Program-made: the position numbers and the translations under genes
Notes under the pieces: model-generated
Told to the model about the DNA's origin: nothing
What the model saw: the letters and a program-made list of their open reading frames with translations, nothing else
Databases searched by the model: none
Shown here: positions 2,056-41,629 of the stretch, in pieces
Layout of the letters: every line of letters starts with the position of its first letter
Position numbering within the stretch: position 1 is the stretch's first letter
Origin: Ostreococcus lucimarinus
Taxonomy: Eukaryota
Reading direction: 5' to 3' (one strand)
Assembly: GCA_000092065.1 (NCBI GenBank)
Contig: CP000596.1
DNA length: 64,000 bases

Positions 2056-5000
2056 ATGACGACGTCGACGACGACGTTCACGCCGCCCGCGCCGTCGACG
2101 CCGACGACGCTGTGCGATTCGCAAAACGTCGCGTGCGTGAACACGGATGTCGCGGATGCGGAAGTTTTGAGCGCGTTCGCCGCGTACGTGTGCGCCGCGC
2201 TCGCGGTGTTGACCGCGTTCGGGATCGCGAGGAAATACGTGCCGATTTATACCGGTCGAGAACACCTGCGGTCGCTGAAGACGAGCGGGTGCGCACCGCC
2301 GCGATTCGACGCGAGCGCGAATCGCGGCGGCGCGCGAGAGGCGTGCTCGACCACGTACGGATGGATCGCGCACGTGTTGACGGTGGCAGATTCTGACATC
2401 GTGCACACGGCAGGATTGGATGCATTAGTATTCTTAAGAATTGCGCAGTTCGGGACGCAGTTGTTCGCGCCTTTAGCGTTGGTTGGAGTGCTGGCGCTCG
2501 CGCCGACACACCTGTCGAGATCGTATTACGAGACGACGACGACGAGCGAGTCGTCTGCGGCGCGCGAGAGCCACGTGTTGATGCGAATGACGATCGCAAA
2601 CGTGGAACCGACCAGTTCGTTGATGTGGATGCACGTAGTGATGTTTTGGGCGTTCACGGCGTATGCGCTGTGGTTGCTGACGGCCCACTATCGCTCTTAC
2701 GAGTTTTTACGTCAAGTGTACGGAACGACGACGGGCGAGTCGAATCCTTGGCGCGCGGTGCACATCCCGCAAACCGTGCTACAGAAGTTTTTACAGCAAG
2801 GAATAAACACAAACAGAGAGTTCATGACGGAGACTATTGAGGAAGAGGAAAGAGAGGGCGGACAGACTCCTGCGGCGAGAACCATGCCGACGACGATGCT
2901 TCTCGAAGCGTTGCTTGGGCCGAAACGCTCGAACGGTCAGATGTCGACCGAGCAGAAGCTCAGACGTTTTCCTAGGGCATCGTTCATTGAAAGCACTCGT
3001 GGACCATCGATGGCGACGCCATCAAGAGGCTATCACTCCCACTTCGGTCCCCTTCGAGTGACGGAGACGCCGCGTGAAGAATCGTCTCGATCGGTGTCGG
3101 AGATTTCCATGGCGTCCATGAGTGACTTTGACGAAATGTCCAAAGAACATCACTTAGATAAATTGACGAGCGATAGCGAGGATGTCGCGATAAGACACAA
3201 TTGGTGGGAAGGGTTAGACATCGCTGAAGAGGTATGGAGCGACCAATTGAGGAGTGGGAGCGACGGATTTGGATCGACCGATGCGCTCTCTGCTCCGCGG
3301 CAAATCAAAGTTGATATCGAGGGGCGATTTCCTTGCAACGACGCATCAACGTGCGATATTAACCCAGTACCATCGATAGATGATAGACGGTACGTCTCAG
3401 CCGTCGCGGACGAAGTCAGCGAAGACGGCAGCGAAAAGGAAGTGGTGGTCAGCGTGTTGGTGCAAAACTATTGCGTCTTGATGACAGACGTCGGTGGTAA
3501 TCTTCCCGAGGGGGCCGCGGATCCGTGGGAAGGTGTGCGAGCGGTGGAGACATTTTTCGGAGGCCTGTTTCCAGACGACTTCCTAATGGTGATTCCTTTA
3601 CAGGACTACCGCCCTGTGGACGACTTACTCATCGAGCGCGACAAGCTCAAGAATGAAATCGAGAAACAATCGATGTTGCAATCAAAACGGCATGGACACC
3701 GTCGTATGCGTAGAGGGAGCGGTTTTCGGGATGAAATCACGGGTTTACGAGACAGAGTAGCAATTTTAGACCACTTGGTTGTTCAGGAGCGCACCAGAAT
3801 TCTTCAAACCGAGCCCGGGTCGAGTTGTATCGTTGCTTTCAAAAGCCAGTATGCGGCGGCGTGCGCGGCGCAGTGCCGTATCACATCGCGTCAGCGTGAT
3901 CTTTTTGCGATCGAACCCGCGCCGGGACCCGACAATCTCAATTGGCAATCGGTATTACTTCGAAGACGTCAGCGTGAGATCCGATCGATGGTGATTTTCC
4001 CGCTCATTCTCACCATCATACTCATTCCGACGGGAATGTTCACTGGCGTGATGTCGTCGCTATGCGTAGCAAATCAATTCGGTGCAAATCACAACGACGG
4101 CTTGAAGTGGTACTGCTCGAGCGATTCCGCGCGGTATCTACGAATTCTAGTGCAAGGTATTTTACCACCCATTCTGCTGACACTCTGGGAAACGTTTGTC
4201 GTTTCGTTCGGAATGATGTATCTCGTTCAGGCACAGAGCAAGTATTCTAGTCTGAGTAAAACAGACGAGTCGTTTGCGGAGTACTACTTTCTGTGGGCGT
4301 TTCTGAATGTGTTTTTCGGCACTGTATCTGGTTACGCCATTCAACGATATTTGAACGCGCTCAACACGAAAGGTCCGGATGCCATGCTGCAACTTCTCGG
4401 TACGTCGCTGCCGCTCACAAGTAATTTCTTCCTACTTTGGATCGTATTCAGAGGGGTATACCTCCCCACTCAGCGGTTGATTTTCCCTCATCCCGGAGTG
4501 CTATGCATGATCGTCAATCGCTGGCTGTGCTGTTTGGGATGCAACGTGACCGCTCGAGATAGAACGATCAAATACAGCCCGAGATCGGTTCGCCTTGGTC
4601 GCGAAGTCGGTGTGTTCGCCATGGTGATGATGATTGGTCTCGTCTTTTCCACAGTCGCACCTTTGATCACATTACTCTGCACCGTATTTTTCGTCTTTAA
4701 TTTTGTCATATGGCGTTATCACGTCCTATATGTGTACGAACGCTCGTACGAAGCCGGCGGGGCGATGTGGACAACGTTTTGCAACTTGACGATTTACGCG
4801 CTGGTCATCGCGCAGAGCTTTTTGTCGTTTGTCCTCTTGTCCAAGCAAGCGTACGCCGGAGCACTCATTCTCTGGATCACTGTCTTACCGGTTCTAAGCA
4901 AAGCCAGTCACAGATTTCGATCGATCGCGAGCGAGCTTCGCTGGTCCGTGCCCCTACCACAGGCGTCCATCGCGCCTCGCGCCGAGTTCAACGCCGAGAC

Positions 5001-5130
5001 TTACATGCATCCAGCGCTCAAGCGCAACTCCATGGGATGGCACCCAGAAATCGGCAAGGTCTGGCGAGGGTACCCTAACGTCACCGTGAAAGAGACTCGG
5101 ATATTCAGAAGACGTCAACGACATAGATGA
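2056..5130 (+). CDS. OSCA/TMEM63/CSC1-family (DUF221) stress-gated cation channel
   Basis: Single long ORF with many TM helices. It has the RSN1_TM-like N-terminus, a cytosolic PHM7-like block (CIVAFKSQYAAACAAQ) and a DUF221 7TM core. The start is taken at ATG 2056 (MTTSTTTF...) because the upstream part of the ORF is Arg-rich GC spacer. A TGTAA follows the stop at 5135..5139. Confidence 0.7.
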   Translation: MTTSTTTFTPPAPSTPTTLCDSQNVACVNTDVADAEVLSAFAAYVCAALAVLTAFGIARKYVPIYTGREHLRSLKTSGCAPPRFDASANRGGAREACSTTYGWIAHVLTVADSDIVHTAGLDALVFLRIAQFGTQLFAPLALVGVLALAPTHLSRSYYETTTTSESSAARESHVLMRMTIANVEPTSSLMWMHVVMFWAFTAYALWLLTAHYRSYEFLRQVYGTTTGESNPWRAVHIPQTVLQKFLQQGINTNREFMTETIEEEEREGGQTPAARTMPTTMLLEALLGPKRSNGQMSTEQKLRRFPRASFIESTRGPSMATPSRGYHSHFGPLRVTETPREESSRSVSEISMASMSDFDEMSKEHHLDKLTSDSEDVAIRHNWWEGLDIAEEVWSDQLRSGSDGFGSTDALSAPRQIKVDIEGRFPCNDASTCDINPVPSIDDRRYVSAVADEVSEDGSEKEVVVSVLVQNYCVLMTDVGGNLPEGAADPWEGVRAVETFFGGLFPDDFLMVIPLQDYRPVDDLLIERDKLKNEIEKQSMLQSKRHGHRRMRRGSGFRDEITGLRDRVAILDHLVVQERTRILQTEPGSSCIVAFKSQYAAACAAQCRITSRQRDLFAIEPAPGPDNLNWQSVLLRRRQREIRSMVIFPLILTIILIPTGMFTGVMSSLCVANQFGANHNDGLKWYCSSDSARYLRILVQGILPPILLTLWETFVVSFGMMYLVQAQSKYSSLSKTDESFAEYYFLWAFLNVFFGTVSGYAIQRYLNALNTKGPDAMLQLLGTSLPLTSNFFLLWIVFRGVYLPTQRLIFPHPGVLCMIVNRWLCCLGCNVTARDRTIKYSPRSVRLGREVGVFAMVMMIGLVFSTVAPLITLLCTVFFVFNFVIWRYHVLYVYERSYEAGGAMWTTFCNLTIYALVIAQSFLSFVLLSKQAYAGALILWITVLPVLSKASHRFRSIASELRWSVPLPQASIAPRAEFNAETYMHPALKRNSMGWHPEIGKVWRGYPNVTVKETRIFRRRQRHR

Positions 5131-5252
5131 ATCATGTAAAGACGCGTGCGCCTCGCCTTTTCGCTCGCCGCCTCGCCGCCGCACAACGCGACGGCCGATC
5201 GATCTCATCTCGCATCGACGAATGTCAGCGATAACGTTTAAAAACTGAGACA

Positions 5253-26879: not shown

Positions 26880-28466
26880 CTAAGACGAAGAATCCTCCGC
26901 CGTGACGCCTGACATCACCGTCGCTTCTCTTTCCAATCTCTCTAAAAGTCGAATCTTGTCCGCATATTTCCAATACGGATTGGCGTCGAGCGTGTTCACC
27001 GCCATCTTCGACATTTCGCGCAAGACGTTGTCTTTGTCGATGTCGGAGACGACGGCTTCGAGCGAGGCGCGTTCGGCGAGGAAGTTATCGCGGAAAGGAG
27101 ACAAACCCGCGCGCTTACGCATCAAACGTTCGTAATCGCGCTGCTGCGCTCTCGCCTCCACCGCTTCCTTCTTCAAAAACTCAAACTCTTCCTCGCTCTC
27201 CACCTCGGCGGCTTGCATCAGCCACTCCTTGTTCGCTTCGACGTACTCTTCGTCGCTCTGCGCTCGTTCTTGGCTCCCAAGGCGTGGCGTTTCGATGATA
27301 TGCGCAACATCGAGGTTTTCGTGGAACAAAAGCAAACTCTTACGATCGAACTCTTGCCTGTCATAATCGTAAGTCTTGTTCTCGGCTTGAAGCTGACGCG
27401 CGACGCGAATGCGCTCGGTGAGCGCCTGTTGAATCTTCGCGTCTTGCGCGTCGCCTCTCTTCTCGCGACGACGCGTCGACGGCGCAGCGCGTCTACGCTG
27501 TGCGATACCCATTCCCATGGCGCCATCCTTGCTACGTCGCGACGACGTGGATGCTAAAAGCGATGGATCAAACTTCAAATCATCCACCGAGCCGCCGTCG
27601 GTGCGTCGCTTGTAGCGAGGCACGAAAAATTTAACATTTTCTCGCCCCGCGGCGACGCGTTCGGCACGCCGCGCTTCAGACATCTCCCGCGCCTTTGCCT
27701 TCTGATCCATTAACTTTTCTGCTCGAATCTTGCGACGATTTGCAATCTCCGCCTCTCGCCTCTCCAACGCCTCCGCCGCCGCCTCCGCGTCCAACGGTTC
27801 GCCGTCGTCGCCGACGAGCGACGTCAAATTCTCAATCACTTTTCGCGACTTTCGCCTCGGCGTCGGTGACATCTCCTCAACTTCCCCTTCTTGCGGTTTC
27901 TTTGCCGCTAATCGCAACACCAACGCCCCCGGCGCGCCGTCCAGCGCCCCCAACTCGCCCTCGCTCGCCGCCGCGATCGCCTTCTCCGCGTGTTCCGCCC
28001 TCACGAAGCGCACCAGCCCGCCCGGCCACGGCCCCTCGGGATTCAGCGCTTTCGCCGATAATATCGGTCCATACTTTCTAAACGTCCGCTTCAGCATGTC
28101 CTCGTCCACGCCCGGCGGCATGTTTTTCACGTAGACGTTCGCCGCGTCCCGAGGCGACGGTTCGAGCCTCGCTCGCGTCTGCGCCGTCCGTCGTCGCGTC
28201 CGCCGTTTCGCCGTCTCCGCGTCCCGCGCCGTCGCGTCGTCACCCTCGTCATCGTTCGTCGCTCGCGTCGTCGTCGCGTTCGCGTCCTCGCCCGCGTCGT
28301 CGTCGTCGTCGCCGTTCGTCGTCGTCGTCGACAGAAACCTAAGCGCGATCGCGCGCCCGCTCGCGCGCGTCGCGCTCGCGCTCGCGCGATGCGACGCCTC
28401 GTCGGCGAAGCGCGCGCGCGTCAGCGCCTCCGCGAGCGCGCCGCGGGCGAGCGCGCGAAGCCGCAT
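26880..28466 (-). CDS. RRM-domain RNA-binding protein
   Basis: VYVKNMPPGVDEDMLKRTFRKYGPILSAK...GGLVRFVRAEHAEKAI contains RNP2/RNP1-like motifs. The rest is a charged or coiled region. Confidence 0.55.
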   Translation of the reverse strand: MRLRALARGALAEALTRARFADEASHRASASATRASGRAIALRFLSTTTTNGDDDDDAGEDANATTTRATNDDEGDDATARDAETAKRRTRRRTAQTRARLEPSPRDAANVYVKNMPPGVDEDMLKRTFRKYGPILSAKALNPEGPWPGGLVRFVRAEHAEKAIAAASEGELGALDGAPGALVLRLAAKKPQEGEVEEMSPTPRRKSRKVIENLTSLVGDDGEPLDAEAAAEALERREAEIANRRKIRAEKLMDQKAKAREMSEARRAERVAAGRENVKFFVPRYKRRTDGGSVDDLKFDPSLLASTSSRRSKDGAMGMGIAQRRRAAPSTRRREKRGDAQDAKIQQALTERIRVARQLQAENKTYDYDRQEFDRKSLLLFHENLDVAHIIETPRLGSQERAQSDEEYVEANKEWLMQAAEVESEEEFEFLKKEAVEARAQQRDYERLMRKRAGLSPFRDNFLAERASLEAVVSDIDKDNVLREMSKMAVNTLDANPYWKYADKIRLLERLEREATVMSGVTAEDSSS

Positions 28467-28519
28467 CGCGCGCCGCGCGTCGCGATCTGCGCCGCGTCAC
28501 ATCGCGCCGCGTCATCGTC

Positions 28520-29443
28520 ATGACGCTCGCGCGGCGCGCACCGCGCGTCTCGGTCGCCCTCGCGCGCGACGAGGGACGATCGCGACGACGCGCGCCCGAG
28601 CGCGCCCGAGCGCGTCGCGGCGCGCGCGCGCGGGCGAAGGAATCGAGCGGAGACTTCATCACGGACGTCGTCGGGAAGATTTTCGGCGCCGACGCGCTCG
28701 CGGACCCCGAACCGTTCGGACTGAAGCGCATGAACAAGGACGAGTGGCCCGATCAGTGGCCCGCGGAGACGACGGCGTCGGCGGCGGCGCTGGCGAGCGA
28801 CGAGGGGGAGGTGAGGGAGATTCGACCGGCGCTGAAGCAGACGCAGTTGGAAAAGTTGGCGCTCGGGTGCGCGTACGACGCGAGGACGCACGGGTGGTCG
28901 GCGCGCGCGTTTCACACGCAACTCGACGGTCAGGGCGCGGCCGTGTTGGTCGGGAAGACGGCGGACGGGGAGACGTTCGGAGGATATAATCCGATCGGTT
29001 GGTTGGGATACGGCGAAGCGCGCGACGCCATCTCGGCGTTTTTGTACGTGCTCGATCGAAAAACGGGTAAAGCCGTCAAGCTGCCCAAGACGGGCGGGAG
29101 CGGCATGGCGATCATCGATGAGGATGGGAAAGGGCCGCAGTGGGGGCCGGACGGGTTGAAGATTTCGCTCGAGGGACGAAGCGCGAGGTCGCGGTTGGGG
29201 ACGTATTACGAAACCATGCCAGACGGCGGCGACTGCATGTTCGCGAACACCAAGCGCGGATCACCCGTGGAACTCACCGAGCTTCGCGTCTACGTGTCCT
29301 TAGAGGACACCGAGATCGCGAAAAATTACCAGCCGAACGCGTTGCAGTGGCAAAAGGGGGAACTGGAAGAGATTCGATCGAACGACGACGACCCAAACCA
29401 CATGGACGGGTTCTTCGGCAAACTCTTCGGCAAGAAAAAGTAA
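28520..29443 (+). CDS. TLDc-domain protein with an N-terminal targeting peptide
   Basis: AYDARTHGWSARAFHTQLDGQGAAVLVGKTADGETFGGYNPIGW...ELRVYV fits the TLDc pattern (F..GGY....W; the block ends in a variable stretch). Confidence 0.5.
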   Translation: MTLARRAPRVSVALARDEGRSRRRAPERARARRGARARAKESSGDFITDVVGKIFGADALADPEPFGLKRMNKDEWPDQWPAETTASAAALASDEGEVREIRPALKQTQLEKLALGCAYDARTHGWSARAFHTQLDGQGAAVLVGKTADGETFGGYNPIGWLGYGEARDAISAFLYVLDRKTGKAVKLPKTGGSGMAIIDEDGKGPQWGPDGLKISLEGRSARSRLGTYYETMPDGGDCMFANTKRGSPVELTELRVYVSLEDTEIAKNYQPNALQWQKGELEEIRSNDDDPNHMDGFFGKLFGKKK

Positions 29444-29512
29444 TATGTATTAGCGGCAGCTTTTAATCGATGTTGTACAACGCGTGCGCGCAAATAATAT
29501 CGATTCGTCAAT

Positions 29513-30196
29513 CTATTGCCCCTCCGGCATGGCGTCCGGCGGATTCTCCGCGAGCTCGCGCTCGAACGCCTCGAGCGCTTCCTCGTCTTCGCGTTTCAGC
29601 CGCATCCCTCTGTGCCCGCCCGGATACCGTCCCTCCACGAACGCCTTCGCCGCCGTCAGGCTCATCCGCATCTTAAACATCACGTACGCCACCGCCACCG
29701 ACGGCGCCTTCGACCGCCCGCTCATGCAATACACCAACACTCTCATCGGATAAGACTCGTACGCCCTCGCCGACCGCGCGTGCAGCGCCTGCAAGCGCTC
29801 GCACGCGTGTCTAAAATCCAACCCCCTCTCCGGCGGTTCCCTCGCGTTCAGCGTCACCACGCTCAAATACTTCCCACTGCAGCACGGCGTGCAGCTCGGC
29901 ACCGCGTTTATCACCGTTCGCACCCCCGCCGCGAGCAGCGCGCGTTCGCTCGACGTGTGCTCGAACGCGCCCACCAGCATGAACCTCTCGATCACCTCCA
30001 CCACCGTCGTCGACTGCGCGCGCGCCCGAGCGCCGCCGTCCCGCGTCGTCGCTCGTCCGCGCGCGTCGCGGGACGCCTCCGCGTCGCGCGCGCGCACGTG
30101 CCCGCACTCCGCGCACGTCGTCCCGCGCGCGTGGTAGTGCTCGCACGTCTCGCAGCGCTCGTCCGCGAGCGCCTCGTCGCTCGCGCGCTTGGGCAT
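29513..30196 (-). CDS. Dual-specificity-phosphatase-like protein with an N-terminal C4 zinc finger and a non-canonical P-loop
   Basis: DSP fold blocks are present (AGVRTVINA...LVYCMSGRSKAPSVAVAYVMF). The catalytic loop reads YCMSGRSK rather than HCxxGxxR. The N-terminus has CETCEHY...CAECGH. The start is the ATG at 30196; the longer ORF to 30727 is probably spurious. Confidence 0.5.
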   Translation of the reverse strand: MPKRASDEALADERCETCEHYHARGTTCAECGHVRARDAEASRDARGRATTRDGGARARAQSTTVVEVIERFMLVGAFEHTSSERALLAAGVRTVINAVPSCTPCCSGKYLSVVTLNAREPPERGLDFRHACERLQALHARSARAYESYPMRVLVYCMSGRSKAPSVAVAYVMFKMRMSLTAAKAFVEGRYPGGHRGMRLKREDEEALEAFERELAENPPDAMPEGQ

Positions 30197-30552
30197 CGCG
30201 CGCGCGGCGACGGCGACGCGATCGGCGTTCGATCGCGATCGCGTCGCGAGCCGACGCTTCGCGCGCGCGGCGCACTGGCGACGAATCGACGAATCGCCGC
30301 GCGTCGTCGTCGCGTCGCCGGACACGACGGCGCGCGCGCGAACGCCGAGCGACGACGCGCGAGACCGCGACGCGCGGCGATTCGTCGATTCGCGCGACGC
30401 GCCGGATCGCGCGACGCGCCGGATCGCGCGAGAGGACGCGAGAGGACGCGAGAGGACGCGCTTCGACGAGTCGGCACCGATGCCGCGATCGCGCGCGACG
30501 ACGCGCGACGACGACGACGCGTGCGATGCGAACGGCGACGATCCGTGCGCGA

Positions 30553-32204
30553 TGGGGGCGCTGTTGCTCCTGGGGGCGCGCGACGCCGCGCGCGAGGGAC
30601 GCGGGCGCGCGGCGGGGGCGCGGCGGGAGCGACGCGGCGAAGGGACGCGCGAGGGAGCGAGGGACGACGATGGATCGGTAAAAATAAAAATCAACGAAAG
30701 CGCGCTGAAGATGAGGCTTGGGATCAAGAATGCGGATCATCGGCGGTTGATTTATAGGTGGACGAACGCGCTGATTCGCGCGGTGGGGTTGAAGGTGCCG
30801 ACGGGATTGGGGGCGATTGTTTTGCATAACGCGAAGAACAAGCGGGAGAAATTCGATAAATTTTTGTTGCATTACTACGGGAAGGAGTCGTTTTCGCCGG
30901 GGACGTATTGGTACTCGAACGCGAACGCGCTGGCATTTTTTAGCGAAATATTTTACGTCGCGACGAATGGACGCGTGCGGTGCAACGACGACGACATCAT
31001 GCAAATCTTTTCGAAATCCGATCCAAACAGGCAGGCGAGCACGTGGGTGACGTCGTCTGCTACGTTGGAGCGCTTTGGAATCACTCGCATGGAAGTTTTG
31101 GCGATTTATTGCGGTGAACCTCGCTTTGAGAACGGTTGGCCGAAGGGGCAACCGCTTCGCGTGCAGCCACCAAAAATCGTGGTGACTCAGCGCGATGGCT
31201 CGGTCACCGATAAATCTGACTTGACAAATGTGAAGACAAATACCGCTCTCGTCGACCCAGGGCGGGTGGCGCTCAAGCGCGAAAGATCGAAAAAGCACGT
31301 CGTCTCCGTGGTTGGTGTCGACCCGCGAGTCACCTCGTTGGGTTGGAAGCGACAGGCGGTGGAATCGGGACACGCGATGCAGAGGACGACGCTGCTGGAG
31401 CGTCAAGCGATTGAACTTTGCAAGCACATCGAGCCGAGCGAAGAAAACTCACCAATAATGATTATGCCTCTGATTTACGATCAGATTTTACGAGGCACAA
31501 AGTGCTGCGGACCGCGATCCCGACCTTGCGAGAGAAACAAATTTAACAAACACTACGGTAAACTTCTGTCTACCGACGTCTTCTTGCCTGAAGACGTCGG
31601 TGTCGCGCTGAAAATCAAAGACTCCGCGGTTGAAGTGCAAGAGCTTTTCAGGAAGTTCACCAACGCTTTCCTCAAGCTTAAAGTTGCCATGGCGGATTTG
31701 GACGAAGTGAGCGCTACGCGAGACTCAGTATCGACCACGTTAAACGGTGTACTCTCGGTCTTAAATACCGTGGCCGATACGAAAAGGAAAAGTGAACTCG
31801 AAGCCATCATCACCGAGCAACGAGCTCACTTTCATGGGCTCGAGTCGGAAGTCGCGCGCTTGAATAAAATTGTGGACAGCGTTCGCGTTGAGTTCGACAA
31901 GTCGGAGTCCGCGGCGCGTCAGCCCTATTTGGATATCGTACGTCGTTGCTACGAGCTCGGTAGTTTGGTGCAAGATCGAATGCAAAAGAGTATCAACGCA
32001 ACTCTTGACTCGTGCATGACTGATATTGCCGCGTGCGAGATCAAGCAAGTTGGAGCCGACACCGACGAGCTGAACGCACTGTTTGTAAAACGCGATTCGT
32101 TGAAAAGTCTCAACGACACTTTGCGCGACTGCAAGGCGTGCTTTGCTTTCTCGCTCAATACGTTGGACCAACGCTGGGAACAGTTTAAACCGATGCGCTT
32201 GTGA
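30553..32204 (+). CDS. Orphan protein with no recognisable domain, in a markedly lower-GC segment
   Basis: About 550 aa of uninterrupted ORF. Its composition differs from the flanks: AT-rich codons and a Lys/Asn/Ile-rich protein. The start is uncertain (ATG 30553 or 30709). The upstream part of the ORF overlaps the divergent DUSP-like gene. Confidence 0.45.
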
Positions 32205-32322
32205 ACTGTACTTTTCGTTGAGTCGCATTGTATTAATATCACCACTAATTTTCGTTGCGTGTACGAAAGATGATCGGTAGCTAGTTACAAGAAATCTATT
32301 TCAAGCCATGAAGGTTATGAGG

Positions 32323-33612
32323 CTAAGCCATGAGACCCGCTAAAAACGCTTTGCGACGCGCTTCACACTCGCGCGGCGAAGGTCGATAGTACTTGAGCAT
32401 ACCGTCCCAGGGTACGGCTTTCAAACCCGCGCGCTTGCATATCATTCCTCGCACACGCTCCGCAAACTCGATGCTTGTTTCATCCTCACGTTTTCTCTGT
32501 GGCTCCATGTACCATACATCCGCGACGACGGCCCAAGAGCTCATGAGTGTGCACAAGTGCCTGGAAAAGCTCTGTCGCCGCGAGTTCCAAAACGCATCGA
32601 CGAAAATGTTGTTGTACTTTATCGCCACCGGCACGACGTCCACGCCGAGATCAAACGCCCCTCGCTTGAACATCACGCAATATTTGTTGTTCACGCACGT
32701 GCCCTCGGGGAAAATCAACAGCGGCAACCGCGACTTCTCCGCCACGTGCTGCTTGAGTCTCGTCGCCACTGTGTTGCGGTCTTTGATATCAGTGCGGTTG
32801 AACTCGATGCAATCTATCGCATTCATCGCCGTTCTCTGTAACAGCCCCACCCATCCTTTATGCTTCTGCTGTATCACCGCGAACGGTGAGACTTGCGTCA
32901 TCACTAAGTAATCGATCATCGACGTGTGGTTACTGACGTACACCATCCCTCCCATGTGTCCTCTTCGCGACGGTCTCGGCCCGTGATACTTGATCACTCC
33001 CGTCCACGAAACCACAAACGCCGCCGCATACAGCTCCACGCACTTTCTCTCGAATCCCCACCGTCTCGGTGTGCAGTAGTGCGAAAACATAAACGCCAAC
33101 GCGAACGCCGCGCTCGCGCTCAAAATGAACCCCAGTCGCAACGGAAACAAGACAAAGTGTCGAATCACCCATCCGCACCACCACAGCGGCAGCAGATAAA
33201 AGTTAAAATTCCAATTCGCCTCCGCGGACTCTTGAAAGCATCGATTGAAGCTGTCATCGATCATCGCCGCGCACGCGTCTTGCAATATGCCGGAGCAGTC
33301 CAACAACCTCGCGAGCGTCGCCGCGTCCTCGGGCGTCGACGTTCGCGACGCCGTCGCGCGTCTTTCCAGCTCGATTCCGGGCGTCACGCGCTGAACCTCT
33401 TCGCGCTCGAGCTCACCGTCGCCGAAGCTGTCGAACGGGGCGAAGGACAGCGAGCGCGCGCCCATGGATGGTCTCTTCGCCACCTCGGGCGTGGACGCGC
33501 GATCGCTCTCGCGCGCGTCGTCGTCGTCGCCGTCGACGCGCGGCATCGCTCGCGTCGACGCGTCGTCTCGAGACGCGTCGGTTTGCGCTCTGGGCGGACG
33601 CGCGTGCGACAT
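32323..33612 (-). CDS. GPAT9: Glycerol-3-phosphate acyltransferase, GPAT9/AGPAT6-like (ER)
   Basis: The acyltransferase motifs NHTSMIDYLV (motif I), FPEGTCVNN (motif III) and VVPVAIKYN are present. TM helices lie upstream. Confidence 0.85.
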   Translation of the reverse strand: MSHARPPRAQTDASRDDASTRAMPRVDGDDDDARESDRASTPEVAKRPSMGARSLSFAPFDSFGDGELEREEVQRVTPGIELERRATASRTSTPEDAATLARLLDCSGILQDACAAMIDDSFNRCFQESAEANWNFNFYLLPLWWCGWVIRHFVLFPLRLGFILSASAAFALAFMFSHYCTPRRWGFERKCVELYAAAFVVSWTGVIKYHGPRPSRRGHMGGMVYVSNHTSMIDYLVMTQVSPFAVIQQKHKGWVGLLQRTAMNAIDCIEFNRTDIKDRNTVATRLKQHVAEKSRLPLLIFPEGTCVNNKYCVMFKRGAFDLGVDVVPVAIKYNNIFVDAFWNSRRQSFSRHLCTLMSSWAVVADVWYMEPQRKREDETSIEFAERVRGMICKRAGLKAVPWDGMLKYYRPSPRECEARRKAFLAGLMA

Positions 33613-33750
33613 CGCGCGCGCGAGTGCGGACGACGGCGCGGGTCCCGCATCCTCCCCTCGAGCGCGCGGGGCGCGCCGGGCGCGGCGTCGAGCGTCGGTC
33701 GGTTTGATTTTAAAACTCGTGGCTATGACGTAGATTAGGTAAATACGACG

Positions 33751-35184
33751 TTACTTTTTACTCTCGCGCATCATTTGCACGAAATCCGCGAAGCAGCGAT
33801 CGGAATCGTGCGGACCCGGAGACGCCTCGGGGTGGTACTGAATCGTCATCGCGCGCTGCTCGGGCCAAACCATGCCGGCGCACGTGCCGTCGTTGAGGTT
33901 GACGTGGGAGACTTGAACGCCCGCGGGCAAGGACTTGGGGTCCACGGCGAAGTTGTGGTTCTGAGAAGAAATCTCAACCGCATCGTCGGGGCCGCGAACG
34001 GGGTGGTTACCGCCGTGGTGACCGAATTTGAGCTTAAACGTGGACCCGCCGAAGGCTTGGCCGAGGACTTGGTGGCCCATGCAAATGCCAAAGACGGGAA
34101 GCTTACCGAGGATTTGCTTGGCGTTCTCCACCGCGTACGGCACCGCGCTGGGATCGCCCGGACCGTTGGAGAACAAAATTCCATCCGGGTTCATCGCCAT
34201 CACCTTATCCGCCGGGTAAGACGCCGGAACGATGGTGAGCTTGCACCCGAAAGAAGCTAAGCGGCGCAAAATGTTGTGCTTGACGCCGAAGTCGTACACC
34301 ACGACGTTGAACGAATCCTTGTTCGCCTTGGCTTCGTTACTGAATTCCCACTCCGCTGTGGTTTCCTTCCACTCGTACGGTTCCTTGCACGTCACTTCGC
34401 TGATCAAATCCTTCCCGACGATATTATACGCCTTCGCCTTTGCGACGAGTTCGGCGTCGCTCAACGAGGCATCCGTCGTGAGCACGCCATTTAAGCAACC
34501 AGTTTCCCGCAATCGACGCGTGATCTCACGAGTATCGATATCGGTGATCCCAATCACCCCTTGTTCTTCCAAATACGTCCCCAAATCCTTCACGCTGCGG
34601 TAGTTCGACACGTTCAGCGACAAGTTTCTCACCAGCATCGCGCCCATGTGCACCTGCTTGCTCTCCATGTCGCCCTCGTTGATGCCGACGTTGCCGATGT
34701 GCGGGCACGTGAACAACACGAACTGCCCCGCGTACGACGGATCGGTGAGAATTTCCTGATACCTAAAATTTCATCAAACGCGCGATGCGTCGTCGGCGTC
34801 AGTCAGACGATCGATCGAAGTCCGCGAAGCGCGCGCGCGAGATTTCAAAAACCGTCGGCGATCCGCCCCTCGCCCGCGCGCGCTTCCGACTCAACCATCC
34901 CTCTCCGCGCCTCGCGCCCTCGCGACGCGCGCGAACGACGTGACGTACCCACTGAGCGAGGTGTTAAACACCACCTCACCGACCTGCGTCGCCTTGGCGC
35001 CGAACGACCGCCCGTTCCACACGCTCCCATCCTCCAAAACCAAGCGGCAGTCGCGCTCTTCCCACGGCTTTTTCGCCGTCGCGCTCGCGCGCGCGACCGC
35101 GGCGCGTCGCGCGGCGCTTCGACGCGTCGGGAGCGAGCGCGCGGGCGTCGCGCGCGTCAGCGGGGTGGGCTTCGAGCTCAGCAT
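33751..35184 (-). CDS. carA: Carbamoyl-phosphate synthase small (glutamine amidotransferase) subunit, two exons, chloroplast-targeted
   Basis: Exon 1 (35184..34949) encodes a transit peptide plus [32 protein letters not shown]. The intron (34948..34763) has a GTACGT donor, a CTGACTGAC branch point and a TTTTAG acceptor. Exon 2 (34762..33751) continues [10 protein letters not shown]...HIGNVG and the class-I GATase region with GICMGHQ and a His/Glu triad. The splice restores the conserved [11 protein letters not shown] motif. Confidence 0.85.
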
Positions 35185-35340
35185 CGCGTTCGCGCGGGCG
35201 CCGCGATGTGAAGCCCCAGCGCGAAGCCGCCATTCGAATCGCGCGTCCGCGCGTGTGTTTCATGGCTTACTTTGATCGCTCAATGCGCTGTTTTCGCGCA
35301 CGAGTCTGTCATAAATATGTAAATTCGGACATTAGGGTAT

Positions 35341-37016: not shown

Positions 37017-38738
37017 TTACACCACTTCTAAAGCTTGCTTGCCCCTTGCGCGCGACTGCTTGTCGATCATTTGGACGCTAGTTGATAATATTTCCTGCGC
37101 ACGCCTCTTTCTCACGTCGTTTCGTCGCTTGATTTGGCGATTCTCGACGGCGATGTACAGCGCTCGTGACGTCGGCACGAGGAAGAAAATGCCCGCGTAC
37201 ACGAGCAAGAGCGGCATGAGGAGTTTGAGCAGTTTGGGGAACAGCTCGAGGATAAGAATCACCAACGGTGGTTCGCCGTAGTCATCGATCGGGACGGTGC
37301 TCGTCGTCGGCGCGGCGTCACGGAATCTTCCCGCACGACGTCCCATCGTTTGTTCGGCTCTTCGTGGAAGTTGACTTTGGCGTGGAGGCTTGAAGTCCAT
37401 ACCACCGGCGGCACGGAAGATGAAAATAAGTGCTACGTTCAAAAATCCCAGGGCGACAACAAGCGGCATCTTCGCACCGCTCTCCCACAGAGGTCGGACT
37501 CGCTCGTAAATTGGCGGCGGCGTCGGAGCCTGAACGCTGCGCGACGGCATCAGTCGCGACGAAGAGGGTTCGACCGCGCGAGCGGTCACTTGCAAAGATG
37601 GGAACACGTATATGAGCTCTCCAGCATCCGAAGCTTCGGCAAATCCACCGAAACGCGTCAAGACCTCGAGCATGTAGCCCTCGTGCATCCTTCGAACGTC
37701 TCGCTCGGCATCCGCCTTCCTTCTGAAAAGTCGTCGCGCGTGCGCGACAAGGTCGAAAACCACGGCAAATAACCCGTTTCGAACTTCGCTATGATCCTCT
37801 TTCGTGAGGAGATACGTGTCTAAAAACGGCGCCACTTGCTCGGCGAACACGCAGCCTTTGTTCACTCGCAAAAGCGCCCCGACAGCGCGCCATCGCCTGG
37901 TTTCCAAATTATCGTTCGGATCACCTCTTCCGAAAACAAACGCGAATATGCTTTCAAAAAATGACAACTCACGATCGCGGTCGAGCCAATCGTCTTCTTC
38001 CTCTTCTTCATCGCCATCAACGCCGTCGCCGCCTCTTCGCGGGCCGACGTTTGTCGGTGGCGGCGCGTTCGCTCGCCCTGCGGGATCCCCACTTCCTCCA
38101 TCGTCACCGCCACCGCCACCGCCACCGTGTCCGCTGCCGCCAACGCGCGGTTTACTCACTGGAACGCCCTCCGCGACGCCATGCGCGCGATCAAACGCGC
38201 GCGCTCGTTCGAATCGCATAACGTCGTTCCAATACGCTAGTTCAATCAAATCGCGCATCCACAGATAGTACCAGAAATCCGCGTTCACCCCTCGTCCGTG
38301 CCCGACGTACGTGGGTAACACCGGCGTCGACCCTCCACCTCCTCCTCGTCCCTGGTGGCCTCGAGAAAGCGCGATGACGACCAACGCGATGACTGCGAGC
38401 GCCGTCAACGCCGCCGAGACGACGAGGAAAGACCCAAACGCGGCCCTCACCGCGCGCATCGTCGTTCGCCACGCCGCCCGACGCGCTCGGCGCGCGCGTT
38501 CGCTCACATCACGGGCTAAGATGGCCGCGCGCACGCGCACGGGGACTACGTAGATGACTTCTCGGGTTTCTTCGTCGACATCGAGATGACCACCGCTCAG
38601 ATGGACGGCAAAGATGACGCGTTGGCGCAGAGCGTCCGCGGAATCATCCAGCGCGGGGCCTTCGGAGAGGAGTAAGTCACCGAGCGTAAACCGCGGGCCG
38701 ACTCTTTCGAGCGCGAGATGGAGCTCGCGGTCGCTCAT
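37017..38738 (-). CDS. Hypothetical membrane protein with Gly-rich and acidic inserts
   Basis: 573-aa ORF with several hydrophobic helices and a non-repetitive, conserved-looking middle (DDWLDRDRELSFFESIFAFVFGRGDPNDNLETRRWRAVGALLRVNKG...). No family recognised. Confidence 0.4.
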   Translation of the reverse strand: MSDRELHLALERVGPRFTLGDLLLSEGPALDDSADALRQRVIFAVHLSGGHLDVDEETREVIYVVPVRVRAAILARDVSERARRARRAAWRTTMRAVRAAFGSFLVVSAALTALAVIALVVIALSRGHQGRGGGGGSTPVLPTYVGHGRGVNADFWYYLWMRDLIELAYWNDVMRFERARAFDRAHGVAEGVPVSKPRVGGSGHGGGGGGGDDGGSGDPAGRANAPPPTNVGPRRGGDGVDGDEEEEEDDWLDRDRELSFFESIFAFVFGRGDPNDNLETRRWRAVGALLRVNKGCVFAEQVAPFLDTYLLTKEDHSEVRNGLFAVVFDLVAHARRLFRRKADAERDVRRMHEGYMLEVLTRFGGFAEASDAGELIYVFPSLQVTARAVEPSSSRLMPSRSVQAPTPPPIYERVRPLWESGAKMPLVVALGFLNVALIFIFRAAGGMDFKPPRQSQLPRRAEQTMGRRAGRFRDAAPTTSTVPIDDYGEPPLVILILELFPKLLKLLMPLLLVYAGIFFLVPTSRALYIAVENRQIKRRNDVRKRRAQEILSTSVQMIDKQSRARGKQALEVV

Positions 38739-38792: not shown

Positions 38793-40353
38793 CTAAATGC
38801 GAACAACGTAGGACGAACTCTTGGTCATGTAACGAATCCATCTGTGTGGATTTCGCGGTGGGTCATCGCGATGACGAGGCTCGTTGGAAGAGCCGACGAC
38901 TTGGAGGTAGCGCACGGCGAGGTCGCTCGCGCTAAAGGTTGGAATCTGAAACGTCAACGATAGCGGACCAATCTCTCGACGAACGTTTGGAATGCGCTCG
39001 GATTGCAGCGAGATTTGTACAGAACACTCGTGATCGGAACCGCCGGGTAGTTTTTTGAACTGCCAGACGATTTGCTTTTCGGCGGCGTCGTACATGACGT
39101 GCTGCGTGCTTGCCGTGACGTGCTTTGGCAATCGAGCAGTGGCGCCAATCGCACCTTTGGGGATTGGCAAGGTTACGATACACCCCGTACACGTGTGTTT
39201 TGCGTTAAAGTCAGCGTAGAGCTTGAGCTCGATGCCCACTTTGTACGGTACGCTCTCGTCGATGATCGGTACGATTCTAAATGGAGGCTTGAAGTCGTCG
39301 GCGCTTCGATAGTGCATCAACGAAAACTCCCCTTGTGGCGGTCGTAAACTTATCGTACGATCGATGTCGAACTGATCCAAGTTTGCCGTCTCGTGGAAGT
39401 TGCAATCATCGAGGATGACGCCTGTATACGCGCCACCCGCGCTCGCACCTTTCCCGCCAATGGTCAAGTCTTCCGACAGCGCCAGCTTCACCTTTGTGTC
39501 CTCACCTTGCAAAAAGTTCCGTACTTGAATGTGCCCATTGATCTCAGACGTTACTACATCTCCATTCGCGTTGAACGTCACGTTCACTTTCTCGATGATG
39601 TCCACGAAAATCTCATCCCGAGTCGTCGCGCTCGACGCGCTCACCACGCTCTTTTGCGTCGCGCTGCTAGAAACTCTATTCACCCCACTCGCCACCGACG
39701 CCGCGTTCATTAAATTAATCGCCGCCTTGGTCGGAAAGTTGACTCTCATCCCCAGATTATTTTTAAACATCGTCTCAACCTTCTGTCCCGCCTTGAGCGC
39801 CCCCGCCGCGATTTTCGTCGAATCCGCCTTTGCGCTCACCAGCATCCCCGCCAACCCCCCTCCGATTTCCACCGGTTCGTTACATACCCTCTCGCGAAGC
39901 ATCTCCGTCGACGTCGTTTGTGCGTATCCATAATCCATCGCCTCATCGATCACCTCGTACACCAACGTCGCGTTTTTCCTCACCGCGTCCTCCGTCAGCG
40001 CGCCGCAATAATCCTTCACCAATCTCGCCAACCGATGCAAAAGTTCTAATATCACGCTCCCGCTCGCGTTTCGCGTCGTCGTCGCGACAAAGTACAGCCC
40101 ACTCGCCTTGACGTGCGCGTAATTCACCCCATCCTCGCGAAAAACCGCCGGCGCGCCGCTATATTCCCGAGAATGTTCGCCCATCGCCGATTCCTCCGCA
40201 TCCTCTTCGCCGTCCTCACGCCGCCGCGAGCGCGCCCACGCGCGCACGGTTCGATAAAACGTCTCGTGCGTGCGTCGAGGCAAGTCCCTGCGGAAGTCTT
40301 TCGTCACCAGCGCGTCCCCGCGCGGGCTCAGGATGAAGAATTGCGACAGCATG
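38793..40353 (-). CDS. AP complex mu subunit (mu-adaptin), AP-4-mu-like C-terminus
   Basis: The longin-like N-terminus is MLSQFFILSPRGDALVTKDFRRDLP. The mu-homology domain ends ...PHRWIRYMTKSSSYVVRI (compare the KWVRHLSHSDAYVIRI type). The start is the ATG at about 40353; the ORF continues upstream into spacer. Confidence 0.75.
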
Positions 40354-40454
40354 ACGGTCGCGTCGCGTTGTGTCGCGTTTACGCGCGCGTCACAGACGCG
40401 CGCGCCGCGTCCACGCGCGCCTCGCGACGCCGCGCGTCGCGCGAGACGATCTTC

Positions 40455-41629
40455 ATGTCCGCCGCGCGCTCGGAGGCGCCGACGTCGACGCGCGCGACGA
40501 CGAACGCGACGACGACGGTTCAAGATGCGAACGACGGCGTGAGCGCGGCGTTCGCGCTGACGCTGAGCGTCGTCAGCAGCGTGTCGCTCGTGATCGTGAA
40601 CAAACACTTGATCAGCATTCTCGGGTTCAGAGAGGGTGCGTCGCGCGCGACGCGCGAGGGCGCGCGCGAGGCCGGAGGGCGTCCGCTCGCGTCCGGACGC
40701 GTTTCCGGAGTTTTGGATTTTTGGAAATTTCGCGAGACGCGGGGCGACTGACGACGGAGAAACGCGGCGCGATGGCGATCGCAGTGACATTTTTGACGGC
40801 GATGCACATGGTGCTCACGGCGTTGGTGCTTCGCGCGGCGGCGAGGATGGGGTACTTTGAAAAGAAGTCGGTGGGGAGGGCGGAGGTGGTGAAGTTTGGC
40901 GTGTTGAACAGCGCGTCGATCGCGCTGTTGAACTTATCGCTAGGATTTAATTCGGTGGGGTTTTATCAGATGACGAAACTGAGCATCATTCCCGTCACCG
41001 TGGGGTTACAGATAACGTATTTTAACAAGAAATTCAGCGCTGGGGTGAAGATGAGTTTGTTGGTGCTGCTCCTCGGCGTCGGGGCGTCGACGGTGACGGA
41101 TGTGCAGCTCAACGCGACGGGGAGCGTCGTCGGGGGGTTATCCGTGGTCACCACGGCGTTAGGACAGATATTGACCGGATCGATGCAACAAAAGCATCAA
41201 ATCAGCTCAACGCAGCTGCTATGCGCGTCGGCACCGTGGATGGCGATGACGCTCATGATCCTAGCCCCGCCCGTGGACGGCGTCCTGAACGGAGGTAACA
41301 TCCTCGAGTCGAGGTACTCCAACGAGGTCCTCATCGTCGCCTTCATCTCGTGCGGTCTCGCCATCGCGGTAAATTTCGCCACTTTCGCCGTCATCGGCAA
41401 GTGCTCCGCCGTCACCTACCAAGTCGTCGGTCATTTGAAAACCATGCTCATCCTCGGTTTCGGTTTCGCCGTCGTCGGCGACCCAATCGTCGCCAAGAAC
41501 GTCTTCGGTTTGCTCGTCGCTCTTTGCGGCATGTTCCTCTACGCTCGCGCCGAGATGCGCGATCGCGCCGTCGCCACCGCCGCGCCTCGTCGCGCTTCGG
41601 CGGACGAGGAATCAGCCGCTGGAAAGTAG
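40455..41629 (+). CDS. Nucleotide-sugar / triose-phosphate-translocator-family (TPT/NST) transporter, two exons
   Basis: Exon 1 (40455..40635) encodes ...SAAFALTLSVVSSVSLVIVNKHLISILGFRE. The intron (40636..40784) has a GTGCGT donor, a CTGAC branch point and a CAG acceptor. Exon 2 (40785..41629) continues VTFLTAMHMVLTAL, with a 10-TM NST core and the KT motif region (HLKTMLIL). Confidence 0.75.

Follow-up and report, generated by a model that had tools for sequence, protein, structure and literature searches.

The gene studied here, referred to as the target, lies at positions 30480-32204 on the plus strand of a 64,000-nucleotide stretch of Ostreococcus lucimarinus DNA (contig CP000596.1, NCBI GenBank assembly GCA_000092065.1); this whole stretch, at its full length, is called the window. 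An earlier note, made from the letters alone, had described the target as a low-GC orphan gene in a very GC-rich neighbourhood, and had suggested that it might be recently acquired, viral-derived or a lineage-specific fast-evolving gene. From comparison with related loci we consider it very probable that the target is a normal nuclear gene of O. lucimarinus, with a single exon and inherited vertically, and that its low GC content is no mark of foreign origin. As a compositional anomaly the target is ordinary. Its significance is modest: it defines an uncharacterised protein family of ecologically dominant picoalgae, which keeps its chromosomal position, is under selective constraint and evolves unusually fast. 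The coding sequence is as follows:

30480..32204, plus strand: coding sequence of the target; translation identical to XP_001421870.1; ratio of nonsynonymous to synonymous substitution rates (dN/dS) 0.26 against the 91%-identical orthologue at locus L006

Identity and descent of the gene

The coding sequence is complete and consists of a single exon of 574 codons plus stop, and the translation of 30480-32201 exhibits 0 differences from the reference protein P0016 (XP_001421870.1, UniProt A4S944, 574 aa). The public label of this entry is 'predicted protein [Ostreococcus lucimarinus CCE9901]', and the record carries no function, domain or name. The target is thus a gene already catalogued as a hypothetical protein, and as a sequence feature it was already known.

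The plus-strand frame ends at TGA 32202-32204 and, as a mechanical open reading frame (ORF), extends back to 30189, with in-frame ATGs at 30480, 30552 and 30711. The public model starts at ATG 30480, and a start at ATG 30552 gives 550 codons. An uninterrupted ORF of about 550 codons had been reported in the earlier note, correctly as regards the frame, which is open on the plus strand to 32204, but with the ATG placed at 30553 instead of 30552. A hydrophobic motif, GALLLL (30555-30572), aligns across 15 homologues and is internal in most of them; for this reason translation is taken to include the GC-rich 5' part of the frame, and ATG 30480 is more likely than ATG 30552 to be the true start. 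Many full-length 574-aa variants with single-residue differences are present in metagenomes, and complete ORFs in MMETSP represent transcripts from distant orthologues of the target.

A homologue search among 5.8 billion protein clusters returned 15 homologue clusters of the target, which cover the whole core at 36-92% identity and retain approximately 90 invariant columns when aligned. The designation 'orphan' is therefore wrong, given these 15 clusters and a further set of 54 representatives with the N-terminal domain of the protein. All members of the family seen come from marine picoeukaryotes; apart from the protein of the O. lucimarinus reference, they are encoded by metagenome contigs and transcriptomes and bear neither a functional name nor a Pfam domain.

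The genomic context was compared for seven loci from six diverged lineages (L001, L002, L003, L006, L007, L008 and the contig of P0077), in which protein identity to the target ranges from 91% to about 38% and beyond. In L001 (47% identity), L002 (46%) and L003 (38%) the gene order is the same as in the window, namely TLD(+), DSPc(-), target(+), PF01553 acyltransferase(-), CPSase small chain(-). In L006 (91% identity) the target adjoins the acyltransferase, and in L007 (48% identity) it adjoins DSPc. The L007 contig breaks off within the convergent gene on the opposite side, which received no Pfam assignment. In the distant orthologues (L008 and the P0077 contig) the target still adjoins the same acyltransferase, with ALG3, Mito_carr, TLD, CPSase-small and Adap_comp_sub nearby. 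These two orthologues exhibit a strong match in the N-terminal domain only (E about 1e-60) and a weak but specific one in the C-terminus (E 1e-5 to 4e-7). Wherever the 3' flank can be interpreted, which is in all seven loci but L007, the target lies tail-to-tail with the PF01553 acyltransferase, and most of the remaining neighbours are found again in the longer contigs. A check of synteny in sister species had been proposed in the earlier note; in the seven loci compared here, the target is present with the same neighbours. The orthologues also resemble their own neighbours in GC content at third codon positions (GC3), with values of 0.74 for L001, 0.67 for L002, 0.65 for L003 and 0.87 for L008, the last located on a contig of 67% GC.

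When the target was compared with the L006 orthologue, dN/dS was 0.26 overall, and the value for the neighbouring acyltransferase was 0.15. By region, it was 0.25 for the N-terminal domain, 0.54 for the linker, 0.14 for the middle part and 0.20 for the helical C-terminus. The target is under purifying selection. In each comparison it also evolves faster than all genes around it, and exhibits the lowest identity when set against its neighbours (47% vs 64-94% in L001, and 46% vs 58-93% and 38% vs 54-87% in the other comparisons). The part of the earlier suggestion that spoke of a lineage-specific fast-evolving gene is supported by these data, since the target has diverged more than any of its syntenic neighbours and the family is found only in marine picoeukaryotes.

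Taxonomically restricted fast-evolving genes are a natural comparison. The target resembles them in having no detectable homologue beyond a narrow marine picoeukaryote set, in being the most diverged of its neighbours and in its long disordered low-complexity stretches. However, it is neither young nor species-specific, being shared by lineages that are 38% identical and beyond, and it possesses a strongly conserved folded domain and clear signs of purifying selection.

Two additional metagenome contigs (L004 and L005, 72-73% GC, eukaryotic) bear distant members of the family. L004 retains the ALG3 and Mito_carr neighbours as in the Ostreococcus-type loci; the neighbourhood in L005 differs, and this contig may hold a paralogous sub-family. 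No paralogue of the target was found by tblastn across the window.

Base composition and the question of foreign origin

Composition statistics were calculated on a map of 42 ORF-genes in the window, picked by a frame signal in which GC3 exceeds GC2 (GC1 to GC3 denoting the GC content at the three codon positions); the map is a heuristic and not an annotation. The window has a mean GC content of 62.3%, with a standard deviation of 5.3 points between 1.5-kb windows. The core of the target (30711-32204) has 52.2% GC, which is the 3rd percentile of these 1.5-kb windows, and the segment 31441-31500 has 35% GC, a level reached by just 0.6% of the 60-nt windows. To this extent the segment is AT-richer, as had been claimed, but it is not a compositional island, and over its whole length the gene is only some 1.5 standard deviations low. 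Its GC content is 0.549 compared with 0.625 +/- 0.048 for the 42 genes, and its GC3 is 0.664 compared with 0.760 +/- 0.063 (z about -1.5 in both cases). A uniform GC3 had been named in the earlier note as an observation that would speak against an island, and the result falls halfway, in that the GC3 of the target is below that of its neighbours but inside the normal spread of the window.

The low end of the GC and GC3 distributions is shared by the target with three other long genes (2056-5130, 37017-38738 and 38793-40790), and among the window genes GC3 drops as gene length rises (Spearman rho -0.45, P = 0.005). Relative synonymous codon usage (RSCU) of the target correlates with that of the pooled other window genes with r = 0.83 (window range 0.70-0.93). 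In the core the GC content by codon position is in the order GC3 0.64 > GC1 0.53 > GC2 0.40, and a coding frame signal is present. Nothing stands out in the amino-acid composition of the protein (K 7.2%, N 4.6%, I 4.8%), which is not Lys/Asn/Ile-rich as had been stated.

A neighbourhood of approximately 70% GC, as described in the earlier note, exists on the 5' side only, where 30050-30650 (the putative bidirectional promoter region plus the target's own 5' end) has 76-78% GC, but the 3' flank (32300-33200) has 53-55%. Most genes of the window have a comparable GC peak at the 5' end: the first 300 nt of the 42 genes have an average GC content of 0.689, and their 3' halves one of 0.594. The contrast around the target seemed dramatic at first reading because the 5' ends and promoters of genes here have 70-78% GC. 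GC-rich gene starts can thus lend an ordinary gene body an island-like look, and a drop of 10 points in GC across 1.5 kb is normal gene-to-gene variation in the O. lucimarinus genome.

Two further observations concern the window at large. GC content falls in the 5'-to-3' direction within its genes generally, and sharp peaks of 72-78% GC are found at gene starts and divergent promoters (e.g. 28250-28700, 30050-30650, 33350-33650 and 34850-35300). The gene at 2056-5130 (plus strand, 1024 codons, GC 0.541, GC3 0.633) is as GC-poor as the target, and the region from about 2700 to 5250 is the other minimum among the 1.5-kb GC windows.

In O. tauri the more highly expressed genes are the more codon-biased, and almost every optimal codon is G- or C-ending (PMC3673656). 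The lower GC content of the target may have two components. Its amino-acid composition would depress GC at the first and second codon positions (core values 0.53 and 0.40), and G/C-ending codons would be used less strongly (GC3 0.64-0.66), as in the other long genes of the window. Low expression may lie behind this weaker codon bias. A GC3 of 0.66 is as expected of a host gene with weak codon bias and is unlike that of a virus.

That the target is a recently acquired island, derived from a prasinovirus or otherwise horizontally transferred, and still retaining the lower GC content of its donor, is very improbable. Such an origin would agree with a core of 52% GC in a window with a mean of 62%, with the lack of a Pfam annotation, and with the fact that low-GC outlier regions enriched in putative horizontally transferred genes are known in Mamiellales (PMC3491373). 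However, microsynteny is kept in seven loci from six diverged lineages, the GC3 of the orthologues is host-typical in every lineage examined, and the RSCU of the target is host-like (r = 0.83). Its GC3 of 0.66 is also well over that of genes from the prasinovirus OtV5, which is about 47-52%, or 0.47-0.52 on the same scale (PMC3673656). Two profile-guided scans of the IMG/VR viral contigs yielded no tblastn-confirmed relative, no match was found in the PHROGs library, and a fold search against BFVD gave no match with E below 1. Both 'recently acquired' and 'viral-derived', as proposed in the earlier note, are contradicted by this evidence.

The outlier regions themselves merit a closer comparison. 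The genome of O. lucimarinus has 60% GC, and its low-GC outlier chromosome has 53% and is without colinearity (PMC3491373). The target is like the Mamiellales outlier regions in being below the genome-average GC content, in belonging to the same algal group and in that a gene with no known function is involved. These regions are, however, at least 150 kb long, have approximately 53% GC throughout in O. lucimarinus and are non-colinear (PMC3491373), whereas the target is a single 1.5-kb gene in a fully colinear region of 62% GC. Assignment of the window to an outlier chromosome was rejected, since its mean GC content is 0.623, no sustained low run is seen in kb bins and the gene order is conserved.

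Even less probable is a decaying or spurious ORF with relaxed constraint, for which the lower GC3 would reflect lost selection: the identity lowest among the neighbours, the GC3 at the low end and the lack of a known domain would be in line with it, but dN/dS is 0.26 overall, 0.25 in the N-terminal domain and 0.14-0.20 in the C-terminal parts, every lineage and many population variants have an intact frame, about 90 columns are invariant at 36-92% identity, the structure models are confident, and orthologues are transcribed as complete MMETSP ORFs.

From synteny, the composition of the orthologues, purifying selection and the lack of viral relatives, the target is therefore an old resident of these genomes. 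Some points weigh against the view of an ordinary host gene, and of a nuclear role for its product. The GC3 of the target is the fourth lowest of the 42 window genes (z about -1.5), and a mild local compositional effect is real, its cause as given above being inferred. A 'Mamiellales-wide' spread rests on synteny and composition and not on taxonomy, and the only evidence of transcription comes from distant orthologues represented in MMETSP. A location in the nucleus, the binding of nucleic acid and oligomerisation, which are considered in the next section, are likewise inferred.

Protein architecture and the N-terminal domain family

The protein was modelled with AlphaFold2 on a 16-sequence alignment, with 550-residue numbering from ATG 30552 and a mean predicted local distance difference test (pLDDT) score of 70.8. 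In the model, residues 1-49 form a disordered tail, which is followed by a folded helical domain; residues 208-277 are a disordered linker, after which come a short helical region and three long helices. On the DNA the parts are located as follows (pI, isoelectric point; NLS, nuclear localisation signal):

30480..30710, plus strand: N-terminal tail, GC-rich (about 72%, measured on 30552-30710), low-complexity, predicted disordered (pLDDT below 50)
30726..31166, plus strand: basic N-terminal domain (N-domain), about 150 aa, pI 9.9, K-x-A-D-H-R-R ... G-W-P-K-G-x-P-L; the most conserved part
31167..31409, plus strand: linker, variable, predicted disordered (pLDDT below 50), basic (pI 10.6), with NLS-like KRERSKKH at 31275-31298
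31410..31586, plus strand: middle region, short helical, with a conserved GP-x-x-RPCE-R/K-N/D motif (from the alignment and AlphaFold2)
31587..32180, plus strand: C-terminal long-helix bundle or coiled coil, acidic (pI 5.3), AlphaFold2 pLDDT above 90

An exhaustive HMMER search of 1.84 billion representatives, with the N-terminal two-thirds of the target as query, revealed the N-domain in only 54 proteins, of which 36 match at E <= 1e-10. Beyond the orthologues, the HMMER matches belong to a wider set of marine-eukaryote proteins and share just the first approximately 150 residues. Among marine picoeukaryote proteins, at least four sub-families contain the N-domain. Its signature is K-x-A-D-[HR]-R-R ... 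Y-R-x-x-F ... G-x-x-F ... A-T-x-G-R ... K ... G-[FWY]-P-[RK]-G-x-P-L. Lys and Arg account for 7 of the 18 invariant residues, among them K8, R13, R14, R25, R47 and K104 (A4 numbering). When the N-domain was modelled alone from 22 diverse sequences, a confident fold of about eight helices and two small hairpins was obtained (pLDDT 87.9, predicted template modelling score, pTM, 0.84). Several relatives have Q/H/G-rich low-complexity flanks. One relative, P0103 (an MMETSP transcript of 1051 aa), has the N-domain at 22-146 and a C-terminal SET domain at 910-1027 (E = 2.8e-20), which is the only association with a known domain found for the family.

Searches of domain and structure libraries gave no assignment. 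A profile search of the PDB sequences with the N-domain alignment returned nothing, and a word-indexed profile search with the same alignment returned short gene fragments only. Pfam scans of 22-30 family members, even at E <= 10, revealed no recurrent family (the SET domain of P0103 excepted), and searches of Pfam, PHROGs and the PDB sequences with the 497-aa core gave only sub-threshold noise. With the full-length model, a Foldseek search against the PDB retrieved only generic and uninformative long-helix bundles (maquettes, McpS, Sso1, SMC and ClyA), all with E >= 0.037. No similarity of the N-domain to known DNA-binding domains, in sequence or fold, was found in Pfam and the PDB. The well-folded N-domain matches no sequence or fold family searched in Pfam or the PDB. 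A domain that is confidently folded in the model is, in other words, unrecognised by current domain and structure libraries. As Ostreococcus tauri is genetically tractable, the function of the gene is directly testable.

The remaining parts of the protein are conserved to different degrees. In the linker, most homologues have a basic K/R cluster at the corresponding position of the alignment. The three C-terminal helices comprise approximately 59, 88 and 33 residues and end with a conserved L-N-T-L-D-Q-R-W-x-Q-F motif. A helical C-terminal half had been predicted in the earlier note, and it is present in the AlphaFold2 model as helices with pLDDT above 90. Cys-containing stretches had also been pointed out there. 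The peptide KCCGPRSRPCERNKFNKHYG is indeed present, but it is not a conserved motif; the sole invariant Cys codon of the stretch is 31527-31529 (in PCERN), and 'KCC' belongs to a clade-specific insertion that only the closest Ostreococcus relatives have. A zinc-finger-like metal-binding motif was considered and rejected, since only the Cys in PCERN is invariant.

In the N-terminal tail, a hydrophobic motif, [GS]-A-[LM]-L-L-L, often followed by D or G-A, is conserved in 15 of 15 homologues. The tail is otherwise unalignable, acidic and of low complexity. A similar MLMLLGEL is found in distant orthologues. The GALLLL motif could be a short linear docking motif.

With respect to function, the anatomy of the protein tentatively points to a role in the nucleus, with the basic domain binding nucleic acid or chromatin and the helical C-terminus serving for self-association or as a scaffold. 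In such a protein the basic linker with its NLS-like cluster would bring the protein into the nucleus, where the basic N-domain would contact nucleic acid or chromatin. The long C-terminal helices would dimerise or scaffold, and GALLLL in the acidic tail would serve as a docking site for a partner. It is also possible, albeit doubtful, that the N-domain (30726-31166) is a previously undescribed nucleic-acid or chromatin-binding module, and that the gene product is a nuclear regulator specific to the Mamiellales lineage. The target is similar to nuclear regulators of the type 'basic domain + coiled coil' in its basic folded head, NLS-like linker, helical self-association region and low-complexity flanks, and one of its relatives is fused to a SET methyltransferase domain. 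The resemblance is, however, architectural only, with no sequence or fold match to DNA-binding domains.

A cytoskeletal or mitotic adaptor is an unlikely, though somewhat stronger, competitor than the origins dismissed above. In this case the basic helical head would bind microtubules or another structural partner in the manner of Ndc80, Nuf2, Hook or EB proteins, the C-terminus would dimerise, and the protein would not be a nucleic-acid binder. A membership of the CH-domain or Ndc80-Nuf2-like proteins was rejected, as neither the calponin-homology fold nor the Pfam profiles of that family were found in the head domain. A syntaxin- or SNARE-like protein was likewise rejected, the Foldseek matches to Sso1 and Sso2 having E >= 0.13; the C-terminus (…QRWEQFKPMRL) is hydrophilic and without a transmembrane stretch.

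Neighbouring genes and intergenic regions

The genes and spacers on either side of the target are located as follows:

29513..30196, minus strand: DUSP-like phosphatase gene, divergent neighbour, 227 aa (Pfam DSPc E = 1.3e-6, under the gathering score)
30197..30479, no strand assigned: divergent intergenic region, 283 bp, 75-78% GC, putative bidirectional promoter plus 5' untranslated regions (from position only)
32205..32322, no strand assigned: tail-to-tail spacer, 118 bp, between the stop codons of the target and the acyltransferase gene (from ORF coordinates)
32323..33612, minus strand: PF01553 acyltransferase gene, convergent neighbour, 429 aa (Pfam E = 3.1e-24; synteny)

According to the earlier note, the target frame overlaps the DUSP-like gene and the two genes share at most a short promoter. 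The coding sequences are in fact separate, and only the mechanical ORF overlaps the DUSP-like gene, by 8 nt; the two start codons, ATG 30196 on the minus strand and ATG 30480, are 283 bp apart. From its position between the divergent starts, it is plausible that this 283-bp region is a bidirectional promoter. An Rfam scan of 29000-34000 detected no RNA family.

The DSPc neighbour (PF00782) is also present in L001, L002, L003 and L007. Its active-site loop reads VLVYCMSGRSKAP in the window and VLVYCMSGRSRAP in these four homologues, and in the O. lucimarinus copy a Lys replaces the Arg of the C-x5-R phosphatase signature. The N-terminus of the DUSP-like protein contains a CxxC...CxxC zinc-ribbon-like stretch, with weak Pfam matches to L32p and to the Cas12f TNB domain.

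Two perfect tandem repeats are located just upstream of the target ATG, the first being a 17-mer (TCGCGCGACGCGCCGGA, 2.5 copies) at 30390-30431 and the second a 10-mer (CGCGAGAGGA, 3.4 copies) at 30427-30460.

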